From assembly GCA_027081275.1 (NCBI GenBank), contig JALWKV010000152.1, positions 6,820 to 70,819 on the forward strand: a stretch of DNA of 64,000 nt, written 5' to 3'. Source of the stretch: Gammaproteobacteria bacterium. Lineage in GTDB: Bacteria; Pseudomonadota; Gammaproteobacteria; UWMA-0217. A model generated the notes under the pieces. The model saw only the letters and a list, made by a program, of their open reading frames with translations. It was not told the origin of the DNA and ran no database searches. Shown here piece by piece: positions 2,924 through 58,719 of the stretch (position 1 is its first letter; every line of letters begins with the position of its first letter). The translations under genes were made by a program, and so were the position numbers.

Positions 2924-4725
<1,802 letters not shown>

Positions 4726-4889
4726 CAGTTCAAGGCAGAATCGCACCGCCATCCATGGCTCCTTGCGAAATACAGTCCATCCATGGACATAAATGTGAGT
4801 TTACAAATGTAAATGACCATTTTCGAACGCAGAAATGGCGGGCTTCAGGAGTGAGCTGGGCAGTTACGCGGTATGTTAAGCTTTTTTGC

Positions 4890-5372
4890 ATGAGATGGCC
4901 CGACGTTTGTCATATTTGCGAAAGCCCTCGCCCGGGGAGTTTTTCCGCGCTGATGGAGATGTACGAGCAGAACTACATCCGCCTGCGCTGCCTCTGTCCG
5001 GACATTCGTGCCCTGACGGGGCACCATGTGTCGCGCGTGCCGGGGGCGCACGACCTGCATCTGATGGTGCAGGAGCAGGCGCGCCACACCACGACGCTCA
5101 AGCTCACCTACATGATGGACAGCGGCGAGCTGCGTCCGGACGTGATGCTGCGCATCTATCACGACGCCCTCCAGGCCGAGGTGCTGAGCCGGCGCTGCCA
5201 GCTCAACGGCGTGGTCATGCAGGCCGAGCGCAGTCCTACCCAGGCGGCGCTGGCCTGTCGCTGGAAGATCAATCGCTTCCTCTACAAGTGGCTCAACTAT
5301 GTGGGCCGGCAGGGACATGGCTTTCGCGATGCCGTGTCGCAGGACTGCGTCTGCGATCTCTGCGAAGCCTGA
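4890..5372 (+). CDS. DUF1249 (YqiB-like) family protein
   Basis: …SFSALMEMYEQNYIRLRCLCPDI… aligns with the E. coli YqiB N-terminal region. The start could instead be the ATG at 4952. Confidence 0.6.
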   Translation: MRWPDVCHICESPRPGSFSALMEMYEQNYIRLRCLCPDIRALTGHHVSRVPGAHDLHLMVQEQARHTTTLKLTYMMDSGELRPDVMLRIYHDALQAEVLSRRCQLNGVVMQAERSPTQAALACRWKINRFLYKWLNYVGRQGHGFRDAVSQDCVCDLCEA

Positions 5373-5406
5373 TGAAGTCCGATAGCGGAACCGGAGAGTA
5401 GAAACG

Positions 5407-6102
5407 ATGCCTGAAATCCTCGTTACCGGCGCCAACCGCGGCATCGGCCTGGAGCTGGCCCGGCAGTACGCCGCCGACGGTTGGCGCGTCAATGCCTGCT
5501 GCCGCGATCCCGAGGGCGCCGGCGAGCTGCGCTCGCTCGCCGCCTCGGCCGATGGCCGGATCGTGCTGCACCGGCTGGACGTGACCGACGATGACCAGAT
5601 CGCCGCGCTGGCCGCTCGTCTCAATGGCCGGCCGATCGACATCCTGTTCAACAACGCCGGCGTCTACGGCCAGGTCGACGCCTGGTTCGGCAACACGCGC
5701 CGTGACGACTGGCTGGCGGCGCTGAACGTCAACACCATCTCGCCGATGAAGGTGATGGAGGCGCTGGTGGACAACGTCGCCGACAGCGAGCTGAAGCTCA
5801 TCGCCACGCTCAGCAGCAAGATGGGCAGCATGGCCGACAACCGCTCCGGCGGCAGCTACGTCTATCGCTCCACCAAGGCGGGGCTCAACGCCGTCATGGT
5901 CAGCGCCGCCCACGACCTGAAACCGCGCGGCATCACCGCGGTCATACTCCATCCCGGCTGGGTGCGCACCGACATGGGCGGCCCGAACGGGGAGATCTCG
6001 GCCGCCGAGTCGGTTGCGGCGATGCGCCGCACGCTGTCGCGCGTCGGCCCGGAGGATGCCGGCAGCTTCTATGAGATCGACGGCTCGATCATCCCGTGGT
6101 GA
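5407..6102 (+). CDS. Short-chain dehydrogenase/reductase (SDR) family oxidoreductase
   Basis: TGANRGIG Rossmann motif and a YRSTK catalytic motif. RBS ggagag precedes the ATG. Confidence 0.8.
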   Translation: MPEILVTGANRGIGLELARQYAADGWRVNACCRDPEGAGELRSLAASADGRIVLHRLDVTDDDQIAALAARLNGRPIDILFNNAGVYGQVDAWFGNTRRDDWLAALNVNTISPMKVMEALVDNVADSELKLIATLSSKMGSMADNRSGGSYVYRSTKAGLNAVMVSAAHDLKPRGITAVILHPGWVRTDMGGPNGEISAAESVAAMRRTLSRVGPEDAGSFYEIDGSIIPW

Positions 6103-6203
6103 GCCTGTTCCGAGGACAGAAATCAACCTTTTCGGGGGCGGGTGGCATCAGGCCGGAGACAAGCGGTAGCGCGGCTTGCGGGAATATCAGAAAAAACTGA
6201 TAT

Positions 6204-6240
6204 TTATTCTTGACTATTTTGCTCGGGTATTGGTAGACTC
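6204..6240 (+). promoter_or_regulatory. Putative iscR promoter (-35 TTGACT at 6210-6215, -10 TAGACT at 6234-6239) overlapped by an IscR type-1-like box
   Basis: ATTCTTGACTATTTTGCTCGGGTAT resembles the type-1 IscR motif ATASYYGACTRWWWYAGTCRRSTAT with about two mismatches. It lies ~60 bp upstream of iscR. Confidence 0.45.
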
Positions 6241-6296
6241 GATCCAGATATCACCCAGGATGGTCTGGGTGAACGTACTACCCAAGGAGTAGAATC

Positions 6297-6773
6297 ATGA
6301 AGCTTTCAACCAAAGGTCGTTATGCCGTAACGGCAATGATGGATCTGGCGATCCACGATCGCGAAGGCCCGGTCACCCTGGCGGAGATTTCGCAGACCCA
6401 GGGCATTTCGCTCTCTTATCTCGAACAACTTTTCGCCAAGCTGCGCAAGCGCGGACTGGTCGAAGGCGTGCGCGGCCCCGGCGGCGGCTACCGTCTGGCG
6501 CGGATGCCCAACCGCATAACCGTAGCGGAAATAATCACCGCAGTCGACGAGAACGTCGATGTCATGCGCTGCCACGGTGACGGCAACTGTCAGGACGGCG
6601 AGCGCTGCCTTACCCATGAGCTGTGGCAGGAGCTGAGCCAGCGCTTGTACGAGTTTCTCGACGGCATTACGCTGGATCAGTTCGTCGAGCGGCCCGAGAT
6701 CCGCGAGATCGCGCGGCGGCAGGACGAGGAATCCAAGCGCATGAACTTCGTCTTCCCGCGTCCCGCAGCCTGA
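6297..6773 (+). CDS. iscR: Fe-S cluster assembly transcriptional regulator IscR
   Basis: [18 protein letters not shown]… Rrf2 family with C92/C98/C104-type cysteine ligands. It is the first gene of the isc operon. Confidence 0.9.
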
Positions 6774-11974: not shown

Positions 11975-11981
11975 CCAACCC

Positions 11982-12074
11982 TAGCCGGCATTTCTCACCA
12001 CCCTTCTTCTGCGACGTTCCAATGGCGCGCCCTTGATCCGTCTCGCTACGAACGCTGGTGAGAAATGCCGGCTA
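11982..12074. mobile_element. MITE-1 copy 1: internally deleted (~89 bp) with both terminal inverted repeats intact, flanked by TA
   Basis: TA|gccggcatttctcaccaccc…ggtgagaaatgccggc|TA. The ends match the full-length copies and ~90 bp of the centre is missing. It starts 8 nt after the iscX stop. Confidence 0.6.
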
Positions 12075-12134
12075 GCCGACGGTGCCGCGTTGCAGCCCGG
12101 GCTGCCTGCCAGTAGAATCCGCGAACCTTGCTAA

Positions 12135-20636: not shown

Positions 20637-20694
20637 TAACCCGGATTTCTCACCACCCTTCTACTGCGACGTTCCAATGGCGTGCCCTGGCTGG
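20637..20694. mobile_element. MITE-1 copy 2: truncated, one end only (~56 bp)
   Basis: TA|acccggatttctcaccacccttctactgcgacgttccaatggcgtgccctggctgg, then the similarity is lost. Confidence 0.45.
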
Positions 20695-37851: not shown

Positions 37852-37938
37852 CGTAACTACCCAGCGCCGCAGCCCGCTGCCGCGCGCCCATGCATGAAAG
37901 TAACGGCGTTACCACGAAGCACCGTTGCTGAACCCCTC
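37852..37938. repeat. Repeat family A copy A3 (5' part only; interrupted by MITE copy 3)
   Basis: ggcgtaactacccagcgcc…ggcgttaccacgaagcaccgttgctgaacccctc, then the MITE begins at the TA. Confidence 0.45.
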
Positions 37939-38120
37939 TAGCCCGAATTTCTCACCAACGTTCGTAGCGAGACGGCACAAGGGTGCGGCATGGGTGACTT
38001 TTGCGACCGAGGAGCGCGCAGGCATAGCCGGCACTATATCGAGCACTCCGACCAAGCGAAAGCCACCCAGGGCGTGCCATTGGGCCGTCGCAGTAGAAGG
38101 ATGGCGAGAAATGCGGGCTA
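37939..38120. mobile_element. MITE-1 copy 3 (full length, 178 bp plus TA flanks)
   Basis: TA|gcccgaatttctcaccaacgttcgtagcgagacgg…ccgtcgcagtagaaggatggcgagaaatgcgggc|TA. It has terminal inverted repeats and a long internal palindrome. Confidence 0.7.
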
Positions 38121-38134
38121 GATTCCCTTTGGAA

Positions 38135-44085: not shown

Positions 44086-45932
44086 ATGCGGTAGCGGGAT
44101 TCCAGCGTCGCCTGCATCGTCTGGATCACCTTGAAGGCGTCCTTCAGATGCTCGCGTTCCAGCCGCGAGATCTCCTTCGGCGACATGAAATTGTCCGGTG
44201 CCTCGTCACGCTGGATCTGCCTTGCCTGATGCTCCAGCCGCAGGATGCCGATGAACTCCAGCGCATCGAGCAGGTTGGCCGCGCCGGATTCGCTCAGCGT
44301 CGGCGTGCCGGCCGCCGCCTGCAGCCGTTCGATGGTGTTGACGGCGGGAATCCCCTCGGACAGCGCGTAGATCCGAGCCAGATCGACCACCGGCGCGATG
44401 CCGTTGTGTTTCAGATCGAGCGTGTCGTTGTGCTTGCCGTCGTGGATCAGCACGAAATCGCGAAAGAAGCCGAGCGGTGGCCGCAGCTTCAGCGCATTGT
44501 GGGTCAGATGGGCGAGGAACAGCGTGCTTTCGGGCGTCTGCGCCAGCATGTTTTCGCGGATCTGTTCCAGCAGCGTCGCCTCGCCGTGGATGGCGCGCAG
44601 GTCGAAGAAGATGCTGGAGTACATCAGCGCCTTCGGCTCCGGTGTATTGATCCAGCTGTTGAAATAGCCCTGCCAGACCGACTGCGTCTGGCGCCAGCGC
44701 GGGTTCTTCGCCATGACGTCGCCGGGGCAGTAGACATAGCCGCATTCGTTCAGCCCGTCGCAAACGAAGTCGGCGACCTGCTCGAACCAGGGCTCGTCGG
44801 CCTTCTCCAGCGCATCCGAGATGATCATGCCGTTGTCCTGATCCGAGTGGGACGTCTGCTCCCGCCGGGCGTGCGAGCCGGCGGCGACCCAGGCGTAGGG
44901 AACCGGCGGCGGTCCGAACTTCTCCTCGGCCAGTTGCAGCAGGCGGCGCGTCAACGCCGAAGTGATCGAGGTGACGACCTTGCCGACGTGATCGGGTGTC
45001 GCGCTCTGGTTGACGAGTTGCACCTGCAGGCGGGGAATGGTGGTGCTCAGCTCCTTCAGCGTGTCGATATCGGCGGCGCGATGGATGGCGCTGGAGAGAT
45101 AGGCGACATTGCGTCCCTCCAGCCGCATCAGATCCGAGATGCTCACCACGCCCTCGACGCGGTTGTCGTCGATGACCGGCAGGTGGTGGATGTGCTTGCG
45201 CGTCATCGTCATCAGCGCGTCGAAGGCATTGGCGTCGCTGCTGGTGGTGACCATTTCGGTGGTCATGATGGTGTCGACCGGGTTGGCCGGGGACTTGCCG
45301 GTGGCGACGCAGCGGCGGGTGATGTCCTTGTCGGTGACGATGCCGCGCGGCGCGTCATTGTCGACGACGATCAGCGACGACACGCTGGCGTCCCGCATCC
45401 GGATCGCCGCTTCGTGGATGCTGCTGCCGGCGTCGACGGTGACGGCCGGTTTCTGCATCACTTCGCCCACCAGCATTGTCGTCAGCCGCGGCGAGGCCGA
45501 GGCCGCCTCCTGGCGCGAGGCCATGGCCTGGTTCAGTCGCTGCGAGGCGGTATTGCGGATGAAGGCGAGCACGCTGGAATCATTGCCGACCGCGGCGTTG
45601 AGCGAGTCGCAATCGACGGTGTAGGCAAGCGTGTCCTCGTCGACGCTGACGCGGAACTTGTCGCCACCGTCGGCGAGGCAGAAGCTGGTGCAGACATCGC
45701 TCTCGCCCAGTTTGCCCAGCAGTGTGCCTTTCCGGGAACGCAGGCTCAGTGCCCCCTTGCGGATGATGTAGAGCCGTTCCTCATCGGCATTGTCGGGTGG
45801 CAGGGCGGAGCCGGCGCGGAAGTAGCGGATCGTGATCTTGTCCAGCAACCGGTCGATGCTGCCGGGTTCAAGGCGGTCGAAGGGGGGAATGGCGGCGATG
45901 AAATCACGGATTTCCTTCAGTTCGATTTCCAT
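44082..45932 (-). CDS. Cyclic-nucleotide-binding / tandem CBS / DUF294 putative nucleotidyltransferase
   Basis: N-terminal cNMP-binding fold, two CBS motifs, then DUF294 and DUF294_C. This is the usual partner of the exonuclease near acs. Confidence 0.8.
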   Translation of the reverse strand: MEIELKEIRDFIAAIPPFDRLEPGSIDRLLDKITIRYFRAGSALPPDNADEERLYIIRKGALSLRSRKGTLLGKLGESDVCTSFCLADGGDKFRVSVDEDTLAYTVDCDSLNAAVGNDSSVLAFIRNTASQRLNQAMASRQEAASASPRLTTMLVGEVMQKPAVTVDAGSSIHEAAIRMRDASVSSLIVVDNDAPRGIVTDKDITRRCVATGKSPANPVDTIMTTEMVTTSSDANAFDALMTMTRKHIHHLPVIDDNRVEGVVSISDLMRLEGRNVAYLSSAIHRAADIDTLKELSTTIPRLQVQLVNQSATPDHVGKVVTSITSALTRRLLQLAEEKFGPPPVPYAWVAAGSHARREQTSHSDQDNGMIISDALEKADEPWFEQVADFVCDGLNECGYVYCPGDVMAKNPRWRQTQSVWQGYFNSWINTPEPKALMYSSIFFDLRAIHGEATLLEQIRENMLAQTPESTLFLAHLTHNALKLRPPLGFFRDFVLIHDGKHNDTLDLKHNGIAPVVDLARIYALSEGIPAVNTIERLQAAAGTPTLSESGAANLLDALEFIGILRLEHQARQIQRDEAPDNFMSPKEISRLEREHLKDAFKVIQTMQATLESRYRM

Positions 45933-46009
45933 CGCGGGCCTCGTCTGGGTGGGATGGGAAGCTTGTCACGCGACGTTAACGCTTCGGCCCGGTCGGATCA
46001 ATGCGTGTC

Positions 46010-46350
46010 CTTGTTGGCGGGTGGTGAACCCGAGGGTTAGCGGACCGGAGCTGATTGGCACCCCAAGAGGCAGCTTTTCCATTCATAGTTACCGATTCTT
46101 CTCCGCGTCCTCCGCGGCTCCGCTGAGCAAGCAAATCCTCGGTTCACACGGAGGCGCGGAGACGCGGAATCCGCACGGTTGTTTACGATACCCTTGTTTT
46201 CTGGATTCCAGGTTAGTGAACCAAAGTCGATTGGCAACCCAAGAGGCAGTTTTTCCATTCATAGTTACCGATCCTTCTCCGCGTCCTCCGCGGTTCCGCT
46301 GAGCAAGCAAATCCTCGGTTCACACGGAGGGGTCGGGACGCGGAAGAGGG
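46010..46350. repeat. Tandem repeat family D (~177-bp units, about 2.5 copies; a degenerate copy lies at ~46905-47030)
   Basis: ttggcaccccaagaggcagcttttccattcatagttaccgattcttctccgcgtcctccgcgg… recurs at 46054 and 46231. Each unit carries a ~14-bp imperfect stem. Confidence 0.5.
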
Positions 46351-46908
46351 GCGGTAGTTATTGACGATACGCTGAACGCCCTCTTTGAAGGTGGCTGCGC
46401 CGAAATTGATGAGTAGACCCACCGGAAGATTCATCAAACGAAGATAAGTGAGCACCTGCTTTGGGTGGACGGCAGTCATTTTTTCCACGGACTTTAATTC
46501 CACGATGATGCGGTTTTCCACCAACAGATCCAGGCGCCACCCTTCTTCAAAACGCATCCCGTCATATTCGAATGCCACGACCTTCTGTCTTTCGACTTTC
46601 AGGCCACGTCTAGCCCGCATTTCTCACCACCCTTCTACTGCGACGTTCCAATGGCACGCCCTGGCTGGCTTTCGCTCGGTCGGAGTGCTCGACATAGTGT
46701 CGGCTATGCCTGCGCGCTCCTCGGTCGCGAAAGCCACCCATGCCGCACCCTTGATCCGTCTCGCTACGGACGGTGGTGAGAAATGCGGGCTAGCCAAATC
46801 CCGGTAGAGTACAGCTTCATAGACAGACTCCAGAAGACCGGGGCCAAGGCCGGCATGCAGTCTGTAAGCCGTATCCACGATCATCCCGGTAATATCATCG
46901 ATTTCCAC
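46213..46908 (-). pseudogene. GxxExxY-family (PD-(D/E)XK-like) gene split by MITE-1 copy 4; the 3' end runs into the D repeats
   Basis: N-terminal piece MEIDDITGMIVDTAYRLHAGLGPGLLESVYEAVLYRDLA and C-terminal piece RRGLKVERQKVVAFEYDGMRFEEGWRLDLLVENRIIVELKSVEKM…LLINFGAATFKEGVQRIVNNY. Removing the 178-bp element and one TA restores a continuous frame …LYRDLARRGLKVERQ…. Confidence 0.7.
46611..46792. mobile_element. MITE-1 copy 4 (full length, opposite orientation), inserted in the GxxExxY gene
   Basis: TA|gcccgcatttctcaccacccttctactgcgacgttccaatgg…cggtggtgagaaatgcgggc|TA. Confidence 0.7.
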
Positions 46909-47034
46909 TATTCAATGTCCTCCGCGTTCTCCGCGTCTCTGCGTGAGTTTCCCCAAGCAAGGTGGCGCCTTCTGCCCCGAACTGTTTGATTATTATCCCG
47001 TGAACCCGAGGGAGGGATTCTCGGTTACAAAGTG

Positions 47035-47058
47035 AAAAGGCTCCCGAAGGAGCCTTTT
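47035..47058. terminator. Bidirectional rho-independent terminator downstream of actP
   Basis: aaaa-ggctcc-cgaa-ggagcc-tttt. Confidence 0.6.
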
Positions 47059-47084
47059 CACACGGTACGGCAATGGATCTTTTG

Positions 47085-48815
47085 TCAGTGATCCGCCGCC
47101 GCGCCAGCACCCGCCGGAACCCGGAAGTTCTCGACCATGCGCTGGATGTGGTCGGGCGCCGGTCCCGTGACTTTCGATACCGCGTAGGCGACGGCAAAGT
47201 TGACGATCGCGCCAACCACGCCGAAGGCCTTGGGATCGATGCCGAGGAACCAGTTCTTCGGCATGCCCATCATGAACTCCGTGCCCTTGATGAACATGAT
47301 GCCGTGGTGCTGGAACACGTACAGCAGCGTGATGCCCATGCCGGCGACCATGCCGGCAACGGCGGCCTTGCTGCCGATGTTCTTGGAGAAGATCCCCATC
47401 ATCAGCGCCGGGAATATCGATGCCGCGGCGAGGCCGAACGCCAGCGCCACCGTTCCCGCCGCGAAGCCGGGCGGATTGAGCCCAAGATAGCCGGCCAGCA
47501 GGATCGACAGCGTCATGACGATGCGACTGGCGAGCAGTTCGCCCCGTTCGCTGATGCCCTTGACGAAGACGCCCTTCATCAGGTCATGCGAGATCGACGA
47601 CGATATCGCCAGCAGCAGTCCGGCCGCGGTCGACAGCGCTGCGGCCAGACCACCGGCGGCCACCAGCGCGATGACCCAGTTGGGCAGGTTGGCGATTTCC
47701 GGGTTGGCCAGCACCATGATGTCGCGGTCGACCTTGACCATCTCGTTCTTCTCCTTGTCGGCGACATACTGGATCTTGCCGTCGCCGTTCTTGTCCTCGA
47801 ACTTCAGCAGGCCGGTTTTCTCCCAGTTCTTGAACCACTGCGGACGCTCGGCGTAGACGAGGTTTTCACCCGGCGCCGGCTCGATGGTGTGGTGCAGGTT
47901 CAGTCGGGCCATGGCGCCGACGGCCGGGGCGACGGTGTAGAGCAGGGCGATGAAGACCAGCGCCCAGCCGGCCGAGGAGCGCGCCGCCTTGACCGAGGGC
48001 ACGGTGAAGAAGCGCATGATGACGTGCGGCAGACCGGCGGTGCCGATCATCAGCGACATCGTGTAGGCGAACATGTTGAGCATGCTGCCGAGCTTGGCCG
48101 TGGTGTACTCCTTGAAGCCGAGATCGGTGACGATCAGGTCCAGCTTGTCGAGCAGATACATGTCGGTGCCGACCATCTTGCTGCCGAGGCCGATCTGCGG
48201 GAACGGGCTGCCGGTCAGCTGCAGCGAGATGAACACCGCGGGAACGGTGTAGGCGAAGATCATCACGCAGTACTGGGCGATCTGGGTGTAGGTGATGCCC
48301 TTCATGCCGCCGAGTACGGCGTAGACCCAGACCACGCCCATGCCAATGAACAGGCCGATGGCGTAGTCCACTTCGAGAAAGCGGCCGAAGGCGACGCCGA
48401 TGCCCTTCATCTGGCCGATGACATAGGTCAGCGAGGCAATGATCAGGCAGACGACGGCCACGATCCGCGCCGTCTGCGAGTAGTAGCGATCGCCGATGAA
48501 CTCCGGCACCGTGAACTTGCCGTGCTTGCGCAGATAGGGCGCCAGCAGCATGGCGAGCAGCACGTAGCCGCCGGTCCATCCCATCAGGAATACCGAGCCG
48601 CCGTAGCCGAGAAAGGCGATCAGACCGGCCATCGAGATGAACGACGCCGCGCTCATCCAGTCGGCGCCGGTGGCCATGCCGTTGAGGATAGGATGCACGC
48701 CCTTGCCGGCGACATAGAACTCGCTAGTCGAGGAAGCGCGGGCCCACCAGGCGATGGCGAAGTAGAGGCCGAACGTGCCGAATACGAATATGTACGTTAG
48801 CGTTTGCAGATCCAC
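47085..48815 (-). CDS. actP: Cation/acetate symporter ActP (SSS family)
   Basis: 576-aa polytopic SSS transporter directly downstream of a yjcH-like gene. Confidence 0.9.
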   Translation of the reverse strand: MDLQTLTYIFVFGTFGLYFAIAWWARASSTSEFYVAGKGVHPILNGMATGADWMSAASFISMAGLIAFLGYGGSVFLMGWTGGYVLLAMLLAPYLRKHGKFTVPEFIGDRYYSQTARIVAVVCLIIASLTYVIGQMKGIGVAFGRFLEVDYAIGLFIGMGVVWVYAVLGGMKGITYTQIAQYCVMIFAYTVPAVFISLQLTGSPFPQIGLGSKMVGTDMYLLDKLDLIVTDLGFKEYTTAKLGSMLNMFAYTMSLMIGTAGLPHVIMRFFTVPSVKAARSSAGWALVFIALLYTVAPAVGAMARLNLHHTIEPAPGENLVYAERPQWFKNWEKTGLLKFEDKNGDGKIQYVADKEKNEMVKVDRDIMVLANPEIANLPNWVIALVAAGGLAAALSTAAGLLLAISSSISHDLMKGVFVKGISERGELLASRIVMTLSILLAGYLGLNPPGFAAGTVALAFGLAAASIFPALMMGIFSKNIGSKAAVAGMVAGMGITLLYVFQHHGIMFIKGTEFMMGMPKNWFLGIDPKAFGVVGAIVNFAVAYAVSKVTGPAPDHIQRMVENFRVPAGAGAAADH

Positions 48816-51454: not shown

Positions 51455-51625
51455 TCTCACCACAGTTCGTAGCGAGACGGATCAAGGGTGCGGCATGGGT
51501 GGTTTTCGCGACCGAGGAGCGCGCAGGCATAGCCGACACTATGTCGAGCACTCCGACCGAGCGAAAGCCAGCCAGGGCGCGCCATTGGAACGTCGCAGTA
51601 GGAGGGTGGTGAGCAATCCGGGCTA
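51446..51625. mobile_element. MITE-1 copy 5 (left end slightly diverged) wedged between two convergent genes
   Basis: aa|gccctgatctcaccacagttcgtagcgagacgg…ggtgagcaatccgggc|TA. The left end contains the TGA of the + gene. The right TA is part of the TAG of the - gene. Confidence 0.6.
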
Positions 51626-54277
51626 GTGACGGCTCGATGCCGTCGCGCCGATATCGGGCTTGCGATCTTCCGGCTTGCCGAGCGGAGCCATCGCGCCGAT
51701 GAGGCCGGCGGGAAGGCCGGGGAGACTGCTGATCAGGCTCATCGCCACCGATGCTGCGTAGGGGATCGCCTGCACCAGCAGCATCACCACCCAGATGCGG
51801 ATGTCCGGCATCGCGAAGCCGTGGACCATCCACAGGCCCCAGGCGCCGGTCAGCATGGCGATCAGCAGCAGCAGTTCTTCGCGAGCATGGTTGAGCGCCT
51901 GCAGAAAAGCCGAATGGCTGGCCATTTTCGGGGTGCGGAAAAAACCGAGCTTGCTGTTGGTAAAGCCCGTTATCACGGCGCGCGAGATGCCGTGGGCCAG
52001 CGCCAGCCCGGCGATGGCGGCGCCGATGCTCTGGCGCAGGTTGGCGCGCACCTTGAGCTGGTAGAGAAAGGTCAGTTTGATGATTTTGAAGGCGAACAGC
52101 GCCAGCGGAAACAGCGCGAACATCATCAGCGGCGGATCGAAGCGCTCGGGCAGCACGATCATGCCGACGGTCCAGGCCAGCGCGGTGAGGTTGATGATCA
52201 GGCTGAGGCCGTCTGAGACCCAGGGCAGCCAGCCGGCGATGAAATGATAGCGCTGACCGCGCGTCAGTTGCGTCGGCTTCAGTCCCGTCAGTTCGCCGAA
52301 GTGGCGGCGCATGATCATCATCGCGCCATAGGCCCAGCGGAAACGCTGCTTCTTGAAGTCGAGAAAGTTGTCCGGAATCAGTCCGCGACCATAACTGACG
52401 GGAACGTACTGCGCCTTGTAGCCGTGCTCGAACACGCGCAGCCCCAGCTCGGCATCCTCGGTGATGCACCATTCGCTCCAGCCGCCGACCTCCTGCAGCA
52501 CCGACTTGCGGATCATCGTCATCGTGCCGTGCTGGATGATGGCGTTGCGTTCGTTGCGTGTCACCATGCCGATCTGGAAGAAGCCGCGATACTCGGCGTG
52601 GCACATGGCCTTGAACAGGTTTTCGCCGCCGTCGCGATAGTCCTGCGGCGCCTGCATGATCGCCAGTTCCGGATCGTCGGCGAAGGCCGCCGCCAGATCC
52701 CTGAGCCAGTCGCGCTCGACAATGTAGTCGCTGTCGATCACGGCGACGACGCTGGCGCGCGGGTCGGTCTGCGCCAGCGCCACGTTCATGGCGCCGGCCT
52801 TGAAGCCCGCCAGCTTTTCGTAGTGGAAGAAGCGGAAGCGCGGCCCGAGCTTTTCACAGTGGTCGCGCACCGGCTGCCACAGTGCCGGATCGGTGGTGTT
52901 GTTGTCGATCAGCACCACCTCGAAGCGGGGGTAGTCGAGCGCCGCCAGCGCGTTCAGCGTCTGCTTCAGCATCTCGGGCGGCTCGCTGTAGGCCGGGATG
53001 TGCACCGAGACGAAGGGCAGCGCATCGTCGGCGAGCCGTGGCGGCGCGTAGGCGCGGCGCGTCTTGCCGATCCACAGCGCCTCGGCCCACTCGTGGGCTT
53101 CGGCCAGCAGCACCATGATCAGCCCCAGCACCGCCAGCAGCATGACCAGGCCGAGCACGATGCTGCTCCAGGTCAGGTATTGCGCGGTATAGCGGTAGAT
53201 GAGCCAGACCGTGGCCGTGACGGCGGCAAAGGTAACGATGGCGAGAAAGCCGCGACCGACCGAATTGAGGTTGTGGTCGCTGCGCAGCATCGGCCCGAGC
53301 ACCAGCACGGCGAAAACGACCGAGATCGCGGCCAACAGCCGCCACTGTGGAATCTCGACCACCGGCGCGGTGAACGAGAACTTGGGATTGCGCTCAACGT
53401 CGTAGAGCCCCCAGTAGGCGCCGGCGCCGCCTTCCGTTTTGGTCTTCCATGGCTGGTCGAAGGCTTCGATGATGAAGTAGTCCCAGCCCTCGTTCTCCGC
53501 CAGCGCGAGGAAGCGCTTGAGAAACATCGCCTCGTTGCTCAGTGACGGCACCGCGCCCTCGCGCTGACGCCCGTTGCTGGGCCAGCCCACCTCGCCGATG
53601 ACGATCGGCTTGCCCGGATAGGCGGCCTGCAGCTCGCGATAGCGTTGCAGCAGATAGGGCACGGCGGCGTCGGCCGGCAGCCCCTCCCAATAGGGCAGCA
53701 GGTGGACGGCGATGAAATCGACGCGCTGGACCAGCTCGGGATGCTTCAGCCAGATGTGCCACGGTTCCGCCGTGCTCACCGGCATCGGCAGCGAGCGGCG
53801 CACGCGGTCCAGATAGGTCGCCAGCCGGTCGACAGTCAGCGTATTCGTCAGTAGCGTCTCGTTGCCGATGATGACGCGGTCGACCGTGTCCCAGTTCTCG
53901 CGCGCCGCGCCGATCAGCCGCTTCAGCTCCACCGTGTCCTCGGAGACATTGCCGGTCAGATGGGCGCCTAGCGTCACCTTCATGCCGTGCGCCTTGGCCA
54001 GACGCGGGATCTGCACCAGATCGGCCTTGACGGTATAGGTGCGGATGTTCTCGACCTCCCCGTTCAGCAAGGCGAGATCCTCGTCGATCTGCGCGGTGGT
54101 GGGATAGCGGTTCTTCGCCGGGTCATGCTCGGCGCGCAGAGGCGAGAAGGAAACGCCCTGCAGCGTATGCGGCCAGGCGGGATCGTTGTCGCCCGGGTGG
54201 TTGAACGCTGCCCAACCGAGAACCGTCAAGGTCGCAACGATGAGATAGAGCAACAGATTAGATAAGGGGATCTTCAC
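51623..54277 (-). CDS. ndvB: NdvB-like fusion protein: N-terminal GH17-like glycoside hydrolase/transglycosylase plus C-terminal GT2 processive glycosyltransferase (candidate cyclic beta-1,3-glucan synthase). GTG at 54277 or TTG at 54298.
   Basis: N-terminal TM anchor, a GH17-like domain (…VIIGNETLL…IGEVGWPSNG…), multiple TM helices, and GT2 motifs IDSDY (DxD) and QRFRWAYG (QxxRW). This is the same architecture as P. aeruginosa NdvB. Confidence 0.7.
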   Translation of the reverse strand: MKIPLSNLLLYLIVATLTVLGWAAFNHPGDNDPAWPHTLQGVSFSPLRAEHDPAKNRYPTTAQIDEDLALLNGEVENIRTYTVKADLVQIPRLAKAHGMKVTLGAHLTGNVSEDTVELKRLIGAARENWDTVDRVIIGNETLLTNTLTVDRLATYLDRVRRSLPMPVSTAEPWHIWLKHPELVQRVDFIAVHLLPYWEGLPADAAVPYLLQRYRELQAAYPGKPIVIGEVGWPSNGRQREGAVPSLSNEAMFLKRFLALAENEGWDYFIIEAFDQPWKTKTEGGAGAYWGLYDVERNPKFSFTAPVVEIPQWRLLAAISVVFAVLVLGPMLRSDHNLNSVGRGFLAIVTFAAVTATVWLIYRYTAQYLTWSSIVLGLVMLLAVLGLIMVLLAEAHEWAEALWIGKTRRAYAPPRLADDALPFVSVHIPAYSEPPEMLKQTLNALAALDYPRFEVVLIDNNTTDPALWQPVRDHCEKLGPRFRFFHYEKLAGFKAGAMNVALAQTDPRASVVAVIDSDYIVERDWLRDLAAAFADDPELAIMQAPQDYRDGGENLFKAMCHAEYRGFFQIGMVTRNERNAIIQHGTMTMIRKSVLQEVGGWSEWCITEDAELGLRVFEHGYKAQYVPVSYGRGLIPDNFLDFKKQRFRWAYGAMMIMRRHFGELTGLKPTQLTRGQRYHFIAGWLPWVSDGLSLIINLTALAWTVGMIVLPERFDPPLMMFALFPLALFAFKIIKLTFLYQLKVRANLRQSIGAAIAGLALAHGISRAVITGFTNSKLGFFRTPKMASHSAFLQALNHAREELLLLIAMLTGAWGLWMVHGFAMPDIRIWVVMLLVQAIPYAASVAMSLISSLPGLPAGLIGAMAPLGKPEDRKPDIGATASSRH

Positions 54278-58250: not shown

Positions 58251-58280
58251 CGGCAACTGGCGCGACTCGAACCGGTCGAC

Positions 58281-58462
58281 TAGCCCGGATTTCTCACCAC
58301 CGTTCGTAGCGAGACGGATCAAGGGTGCGGCATGGGTGGCTTTCGCGACCGAGGAGCGCGCAGGCATAGCCGACACTATGTCGAGCACTCCGACCGAGCG
58401 AAAGCCAGCCAGGGCGTGCCATTGGGACGTCGCAGTAGAAGGGTGGTGAGAAATCCGGGCTA
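58281..58462. mobile_element. MITE-1 copy 6 (full length)
   Basis: TA|gcccggatttctcaccaccgttcgtagcgagacgg…ggtggtgagaaatccgggc|TA. Confidence 0.7.
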
Positions 58463-58719
58463 GTGGTAAAGACAATATATCAATAGTTGCAAGAGTAGCT
58501 GCGTTCCTGGCGGTGCATATAAATGCATCTTTGGACCAGAGGGTGCGTTCTACGTACCGTCTGGGCCTGCGGGAATATCTGCAACCCCTATATCAACATG
58601 GGACGCATGCGTACGTGTATCGCGGACCGCATATTGAAAGTGGTGGGACTGATGAGCAGTACAGGGAAGCAGGAAGACATACCGGATAGCGCAATCGACA
58701 TGAAATCCTAGAGACGCGC

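Follow-up and report, generated by a model that had tools for sequence, protein, structure and literature searches.

What has split a small gene of the GxxExxY family in two, and what is left of its function? The question arises in a 64,000-nucleotide stretch of DNA from a Gammaproteobacteria bacterium (assembly GCA_027081275.1, contig JALWKV010000152.1, positions 6,820 to 70,819), the whole of which is called the window here and is numbered from its first letter. On its minus strand a GxxExxY gene, which specifies a PD-(D/E)XK-like protein, runs from 46908 to 46213 and is interrupted by a 178-bp element (46613-46790) of the miniature inverted-repeat transposable element (MITE) type. We consider it very likely that this gene-less element, sitting in the TA of a CTAG tetranucleotide and probably moved by an IS630/Tc1-mariner transposase, split the gene, that the gene is dead, and that the tandem repeats at its 3' end (the D units described below) are not a second hit. 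The event itself is real and ordinary, in that a MITE-type element inactivated a small, probably selfish nuclease gene.

Reconstruction of the Gene

Two minus-strand open reading frames (ORFs) lie head to tail within 46908-46213. The first (46624-46908, 94 aa) starts MEIDDITGMIVDTAYRLHAGLGPGLLESVYEAVLYRDLA and carries unrelated residues thereafter, and the second (46213-46620, 135 aa) reads MRA followed by RRGLKVERQKVVAFEYDGMRFEEG…. When 180 bp are deleted, GCT (Ala39) abuts AGA (Arg40) and a continuous frame of 171 codons results, the restored junction of the rebuilt protein reading …LYRDLA|RRGLKVERQK…. The 5' part of the gene (46794-46908, minus strand) extends from a GTG start (46908-46906) to Leu38 and the first base of the Ala39 codon (46794-46792); G46793 and the TA copy (46791-46792) complete that codon. 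This part holds the G24-x-x-E27-x-x-Y30 motif and two N-terminal helices. The 3' part (46213-46611, minus strand) extends from Arg40 (AGA, 46611-46609) to the stop codon (46215-46213) and holds the D67 / E77-x-K79 core, with a disordered tail after residue ~127. No frameshift or internal stop is present in either half.

Against TIGR04256 the rebuilt protein scores 131.3 bits (cutoff 35; E = 2e-38) and covers positions 2-116 of the 116 in the profile; against PF13366 (PDDEXK_3), which it matches over its full length, it scores 131.6 bits (cutoff 22; E = 2.3e-38). Submitted separately, the two fragments cover positions 2-36 and 36-116 of TIGR04256, so that they join with neither loss nor overlap. 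When 21 intact homologs are aligned with the rebuilt protein the junction is free of gaps, the motif reads G24-L-L-E27-S-V-Y30 in the window, and D67, E77 and K79 are invariant. An earlier note, made from the letters of this DNA, had placed the two halves on either side of a MITE, held that the ORF was split in frame and could be rebuilt, and expected the reconstructed protein to fit the family. Both halves are where it put them, the full-length profile match and the gap-free junction bear out the reconstruction, and the observation that a MITE-type element splits a GxxExxY gene is hereby confirmed. The gene is a bona fide yet interrupted member of TIGR04256/PF13366, its frame being cut after codon 39 and closed by a TGA at 46626-46624. 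Steczkiewicz et al. (2012, PMC3424549) list the GxxExxY family as one of unknown function that has passed repeatedly from one division to another.

An AlphaFold (AF2) model built from the homolog alignment is confident for residues 1-127 and places helices at 3-21 and 27-40 with a sheet after them, the insertion point falling at the end of the second helix (27-40). The top Foldseek matches of this model are Cas4 SSO0001 (E = 5e-4), lambda exonuclease and CinB, at modest TM-scores of 0.34-0.40, and the predicted structure thus has the features of a PD-(D/E)XK-like fold. A sequence search with the rebuilt protein found no solved structure, and no GxxExxY relatives were found in viral contigs. 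A scan of 45900-47150 found neither a promoter nor a terminator. The start codon itself shows a small peculiarity at 46903-46911, where the paralogs at three other loci (L002-L004) start with ATG and the window has ATA; the next codon, the GTG at 46908-46906, is the sole available start.

A misjoin induced by repeats during assembly could in principle have set a MITE between two gene fragments in a metagenome-assembled genome (MAG), and the source contig does carry many repeat copies, while other assemblies of the region break at neighbouring repeats. This explanation is scarcely credible, given that the flanks combine, exactly to the base, into a single ORF typical of the family, unlike those of a random misjoin, and that an independent metagenome contig of the Joint Genome Institute (JGI), here L001, shows an identical junction between element terminus and Arg40.

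The Inserted Element and Its Copies

The element core (46613-46790) spans 178 bp when the outer C and G are counted as flank and the TA as duplicated target. It has no gene of its own: no ORF with its own start codon was seen, only read-through frames. Its terminal inverted repeats are 19 nt long and perfect, the left one (46613-46631, plus strand) reading GCCCGCATTTCTCACCACC and the right one (46772-46790, minus strand) being its perfect complement. With the flanking CTAG included, the arms form a 22-nt inverted repeat of 100% complementarity (CTAGCCCGCATTTCTCACCACC at 46610-46631, complement at 46772-46793). The body is a long imperfect hairpin, and the folding energy of the element's DNA is -54.6 kcal/mol (z = -7.9). 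An Rfam search of the MITE and the D units returned no family, only sub-threshold chance matches.

The window holds 10 matches to the 19-nt terminus where 0.03 would be expected, and the repeat is therefore not due to chance. Counting the copy in the gene, BLAST revealed six copies or fragments with unrelated flanks, and all intact ends sit in CTAG; the copies other than that in the gene appear intergenic. Two are full and flanked by CTAG on both sides (CTAG…CTAG), namely an intergenic one at 58280-58463 (minus strand, 97.8% identical) and another intergenic one at 37938-38121 (minus strand, 91.8% identical). A third, at 51455-51626 (minus strand, 95.9% identical), has one decayed end; a fourth, at 11981-12075 (plus strand), is internally deleted to 95 bp, keeps both terminal repeats and is likewise flanked CTAG…CTAG; and a 58-bp fragment at 20637-20694 (plus strand) preserves the left end only (TTAACCCGG…). 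The element is thus small and gene-less, bounded by terminal inverted repeats and present in dispersed copies, which are the descriptive features of a MITE.

Target Site and Likely Mode of Transposition

The presumed copies of the duplicated target are the TA at 46611-46612, inside the CTAG at 46610-46613, and the TA at 46791-46792, inside the CTAG at 46790-46793, and the net gain at the gene site is exactly 180 bp. CTAG is strongly under-represented in the window, with 28 occurrences where base composition predicts 212 and a Markov estimate 77. One third of them (9 of 28) are MITE ends, and these comprise all nine intact ends; because the nine fall among 28 CTAG as against 1007 TA dinucleotides, the element targets CTAG and not TA in general. 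A strong preference for CTAG, which is rare in this genome, would explain the hit in the GxxExxY gene, and the same rarity accounts for the landing places of the element, which is of use to annotators. The empty allele would read …GATTTGGCTAGACGTGGC… with a single TA/CTAG.

The earlier note took the locus itself as direct support for a TA duplication. Duplications of TA, CTA and CTAG predict one identical empty site (…TTGGCTAGACGT…), so that the site in the gene does not prove the claim, which draws its support from other copies. In 66 paired elements from other genomes, for which one end was required to be CTAG by selection, the opposite end was CTAG in 40, CTAA in 12, CTAT in three and CTAC in one. 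The outer base of this opposite end differs in 19 of the 66, compared with 1-7 at neighbouring positions, and is for this reason to be regarded as flank and not as duplicated target. TA duplication is most likely the best reading of these sequences.

The variable outer base is also what speaks against a family of transposases with a 4-bp duplication at YTAR/CTAG. IS5 is of this kind, with YTAR as its target and a 4-bp duplication. The element proper would then be 176 bp long (CCCGC…GCGGG), and the empty site is identical whether 176 + 4 bp or 178 + 2 bp are taken out. All intact copies in the window are indeed flanked CTAG…CTAG, and no IS630 transposase with the termini of the MITE was found. 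Opposite ends of the type CTAA (12), CTAT (3) and CTAC (1) among the 66 are nevertheless a pattern that a 4-bp duplication does not give, and we regard this explanation as improbable.

IS630-family elements transpose by cut-and-paste and duplicate TA (Feng and Colloms, 2007, PMC2170065), and the same authors, citing Tenzen and Ohtsubo (1991), give the IS630 target as "TA in the 5'-CTAG-3' sequence". The present element would accordingly be moved by cut-and-paste, with duplication of the TA, by an IS630/Tc1-mariner DDE transposase whose gene lies elsewhere. An IS630-type mechanism, as judged from the target, appears reasonably likely.

Several results weigh against this attribution. No transposase or longer element with the MITE termini was found in the 64-kb window, and no autonomous partner with these termini at the 111 genome loci covered, many of whose contigs end at the repeat. 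A BLAST search of plasmids for the termini gave chance matches only, and viral contigs gave none. The IS630-family copies in the fetched Bryobacterales loci have termini that read TA|TTGAYTCCCGCATAATAT and TA|GTACTAACTTGCG, unlike those of the MITE.

Some candidates were considered and set aside. Inward ORFs beside unpaired termini proved to be ordinary genes, and the IS630, IS21 and IS1380-like transposases among 1529 clustered ORFs from 111 loci had other termini or were not adjacent; the window itself contains no transposase of any of these three types. Pairs of filled and empty sites among the fetched loci were solely paralogous repeats with no TA at the site, and were uninformative.

Consequence for the Gene Product

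Read in the frame of the gene, the element stays open for 55 codons and then presents a single TGA (46624-46626, minus strand), the sole in-frame stop introduced, which lies inside the far terminal repeat (GGTGGTGAgaaATG). The 94-aa product consequently comprises 39 native and 55 element-coded residues, since it ends at this codon. The earlier note was right that an insertion of 180 bp keeps the reading frame, and wrong in speaking of several in-frame stops. One codon past the TGA, in the same terminal repeat, an in-frame ATG (46618-46620, minus strand) opens the 135-aa ORF (MRA and then Arg40…).

The insertion would cut the N-terminal helices that bear the GxxExxY motif off from the sheet with D67 and E77-x-K79. 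Because of this separation we infer that the gene is inactive, that is, dead.

The opposite view, that a nuclease in two pieces still works, would have translation end at the TGA and resume three bases on, at the ATG, and the two products (94 and 135 aa) assemble with each other. Stop and restart are one codon apart in the same frame, GGTGGTGAgaaATG contains a Shine-Dalgarno-like GGTGA/GGAG run, both halves lack frameshifts and internal stops, and gene callers report the 135-aa ORF as a protein in two assemblies (P0001, P0069). We find this very unlikely all the same: the protein is a single compact domain that is cut at a helix end and lengthened by 55 residues foreign to it, a match of frame would arise by chance in one case out of three, and the substitutions relative to L001 are all nonsynonymous, among them a change from L to W at a conserved core position. 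Of the 66 elements from other genomes, 21 have A in place of the T of the restart ATG; the ATG is therefore not conserved in the element family, and its candidacy as a selected feature was rejected on the same count. The arrangement of stop and restart is most likely incidental.

With the gene read as inactivated, the locus is a textbook-clean MITE knockout, in which both the target (TA in CTAG) and the net size of 180 bp can be read from a protein alignment, and in which gene callers nonetheless report the 3' fragment as a protein.

Age of the Insertion

The earlier note called the insertion recent. The element's perfect termini, its 97.8% identity to another copy and the undecayed gene halves favour that view. 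A close relative, however, has the same CTAG filled, and the claim is supported in part only. This relative, the independent contig L001, is syntenic with the window, with flanks 94-96% identical. In its orthologous gene the outer 27 nt of the element match those of the window with one mismatch, and the junction between the element terminus and Arg40 is the same as in the window. It may be proposed that the insertion, or at least the occupation of the site, predates the split from this ~95% identical relative, and that the 3' half would then have drifted without constraint. Over the 100 codons past the junction, the window and L001 differ at five bases, all of them nonsynonymous. At three of the four changed residues the amino acid of the family consensus stands in L001 but not in the window (for instance, the L to W change at the conserved core position), and at the fourth (P/L, in the tail) neither fits. 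This small number of substitutions fits unconstrained drift.

The account given here has several results to contend with. Beyond its outer 27 nt the L001 element differs from the MITE of the window, so that the two lineages may carry different elements, or L001 may be chimeric. The count of five nonsynonymous to no synonymous changes is statistically weak (~0.24 under neutrality). No empty-site allele was found in the collections searched, and a metagenome scan with the right flank returned L001 only and no empty allele; the comparison with relatives that the earlier note had called for thus did not yield the expected empty site with a single TA, L001 being filled. The best intact homologs are 83-87% identical and lie in a different operon, as paralogs, and a protein search found no intact relative above 87% identity to the rebuilt ORF. 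Where other assemblies contain the identical neighbouring genes, they are broken at the repeats.

The mismatch between the two elements may instead mean that the lineages of the window and of L001 were hit independently at the same rare CTAG by different family members, in which case the insertion in the window could be recent. The unrelated sequence of the L001 element past its outer 27 nt points this way, as do the scarcity of CTAG sites, which are strongly preferred, and the intactness of the window copy noted above. Two hits in one of ~24 CTAG sites per 64 kb would be improbable, however; the differences in the 3' half, all nonsynonymous, are what would be expected if both copies were pseudogenes before the split, and the interior of the L001 element could be a nested insertion or an assembly join. 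On balance independent hits seem rather unlikely, and we continue to prefer an occupation of the site that is older than the split. The element in L001 may represent an independent hit or a full-length relative, and a nested insertion or a join made during assembly would also account for it.

The L001 contig ends 110 nt into this region (1-110), and the 83 nt next to the shared terminus match no window sequence, fetched locus or Rfam family. The end of a group II intron was considered for this interior and rejected, as Rfam gave no signal.

Distribution of the Element and Comparison With Known Systems

An exact-match scan for the terminus was made with one genome per species, and the counts from it are lower bounds. 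The terminus was found in at least 111 stretches of species-representative genomes from at least five phyla. Among the matches listed, the carriers are chiefly MAGs that bear the label Bryobacterales or Gammaproteobacteria, further labels being Alphaproteobacteria, "Deltaproteobacteria", Planctomycetota/Pirellulales, Terriglobia, Verrucomicrobiota, Polyangia and Omnitrophota. An inverted partner terminus lies 130-330 bp off in 67 cases among these matches, the commonest spacing being 184-185 bp. The gammaproteobacterial and Bryobacterales types of the element are ~70% identical overall, and their arms co-vary between phyla, with 19 of 48 predicted pairs changed on both sides. Annotators should expect to meet the 184-bp element in many uncultured Gammaproteobacteria and Acidobacteriota, whose assemblies it breaks.

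The element resembles the MITEs of the IS630/Tc1-mariner group (IS630-type in bacteria, Stowaway in plants) in being small and gene-less, with inverted repeats, dispersed copies, a hairpin-like body and insertion at TA, and it shares the CTAG preference of IS630. It differs in that no autonomous partner with the same termini was found among the loci searched, and in that a range of at least five phyla for one 19-22-nt terminus and a 184-185-bp size class is unusually wide for a single family of MITEs. The Correia elements of Neisseria are hairpin-forming sequences of 100-160 bp with inverted repeats of ~26 bp and a TA duplication; they are scattered between genes, at times altering the expression of their neighbours, and are not known outside Neisseria. 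Hairpin and TA are alike in the present element, which bears no known sequence relationship to them and whose copy here lies inside a coding sequence. Rickettsia palindromic elements (RPE) are palindromic, enter protein genes in multiples of three, keep the frame and are translated within the host protein. Both they and the present element lie in frame in genes, but the frame used here contains a TGA and the protein is cut. One other frame of the element is entirely open, and an outcome of the RPE kind would therefore be possible in a different phase. Compared with the GxxExxY family at large, the gene in the window has the same motif and D…ExK core, and differs in being interrupted.

Individual loci show further features of the element. 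Its 22-nt terminus (CTAGCCSGSATTTCTCACCACC, loci L005-L115) is identical across at least five phyla. In two Bryobacterales loci (L009, ~5560-6540; L061, ~4610-5590) the MITE termini stand 975 bp apart, the surplus of ~790 bp being a group II intron without an ORF, nested in the MITE (RF02003 with 82-86 bits, plus RF00029). At a third locus (L063, 6700-6961) the TA on the right-hand side of an IS630-family element is also the exact point at which a MITE copy begins, the junction reading …CGCAACTAAGTAC|TA|GCCCGC…, so that the two share one TA target; the termini of this IS630-family element are unrelated to those of the MITE.

Inverted Repeats and Tandem Units Around the Gene

The earlier note also held that the gene was doubly disrupted, its 3' end running into the tandem D repeats. 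This does not hold, for the tail in question is conserved across phyla and is encoded by a repeat that belongs to the gene's own surroundings. Homologs from Planctomycetota, Acidobacteriota, Chloroflexota, Chromatiales and others extend past the Pfam domain with …NNYxPSSASPRLRVNQ; beyond the SASPRLRVN tail, which is disordered in the AF2 model, their ends vary, and the whole proteins measure 137-192 aa. In the DNA the tail corresponds to a conserved repeat (CTCCGCGTCTCCGCGCCTCCGCGTGA), an inverted copy of which, (T)CACGCGGAGGCGCGGAGACGCGGAG, lies just upstream of the start codon. In the window the right inverted repeat (46320-46346, minus strand) reads TCCGCGTCCCGACCCCTCCGTGTGA and encodes the conserved SASPRLRVN tail, and the left one (46918-46947, minus strand) reads CTCACGCAGAGACGCGGAGAACGCGGAGGA and ends 9 nt upstream of the GTG start. 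The pair brackets the gene in the window, in the paralogs L002-L004, in Allochromatium tepidum, in one Acidobacteria MAG and in one Chloroflexi MAG. Since it flanks the gene in all these genomes, the GxxExxY gene is best described as a cassette bounded by conserved inverted repeats of ~25-30 bp, which are made up of CGCGGAG-like units. Protein identities of 70-87% across phyla, together with the shared repeats, give it what looks like the character of a mobile cassette.

Two D units of a 176-bp tandem array adjoin the gene. Unit 1 (46211-46359, minus strand) overlaps its last codons and the right inverted repeat, and unit 2 (46035-46183, minus strand) is composed of a sequence like the left repeat, a remnant of the last ~25 GxxExxY codons (LPLGLPIDFGSLTWNPENKGIVNN) and a right repeat. 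The peptide of a D unit, LPLGLPIDFGSLTWNPENKGIVNNRADSASPRLRVN, matches the C-terminus of the family with 98% probability and E = 7e-14 (hhalign). There are two D units in the window compared with four in L001 (~377-1010). Judged from these sequences, the D units are truncated copies of the cassette in a tandem array of variable length. For annotation it follows that SASPRLRVN-type tails and the small ORFs of D units are translated repeat DNA and not features of a protein.

It can be speculated, as a possible though doubtful reading, that two unrelated selfish systems are nested at this locus, mobile nuclease cassettes of ~125 codons (repeats of ~25-30 bp) with gene-less 176-bp D derivatives having been hit by a hairpin MITE that crosses phyla. 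Cassettes would then move between phyla and into operons, and D units would pile up in tandem. Were the cassette reading true, the abundant GxxExxY family of unknown function would gain a role as the enzyme of its own mobile element. Neither bracketing repeats nor truncated tandem copies are mentioned in PMC3424549 or in a reverse-transcriptase preprint, both of which name the family. The wider interest of the locus lies in one terminal repeat found across at least five phyla and in GxxExxY genes as inverted-repeat cassettes with miniature derivatives.

Several minor observations concern the cassette and its surroundings. Inverted repeats of ~19-26 bp with CGCGGAG-like units bracket GxxExxY genes in at least four phyla; outside the window the pairs lie at 1207-1232/1629-1654 in L002, 1466-1484/1897-1915 in L117, 1467-1484/1894-1911 in L118 and 1385-1409/1884-1908 in L119. 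The closest intact paralogs (L002, 448-3613; L003; L004; L117, 1257-3441) lie between genes for DUF4391 and an N6_N4 DNA methyltransferase in four assemblies. The start of the cassette overlaps the DUF4391 stop in L002, and the DUF4391 ORF of Allochromatium tepidum is only 68 aa long. A 13-nt direct repeat, GTGAACCCGAGGG (46024-46036 and 47000-47012), brackets the cassette and the D-unit array in the window, where ~0.01-0.03 such repeats would be expected by chance in the region, and its distal copy is not conserved in L001. Further off, at 45199-45292 (plus strand) inside a CBS/DUF294 gene, a sub-threshold Rfam match to the Xanthomonas small RNA sX7 (25.3 bits compared with a gathering score of 55, E = 0.044) is probably due to chance.

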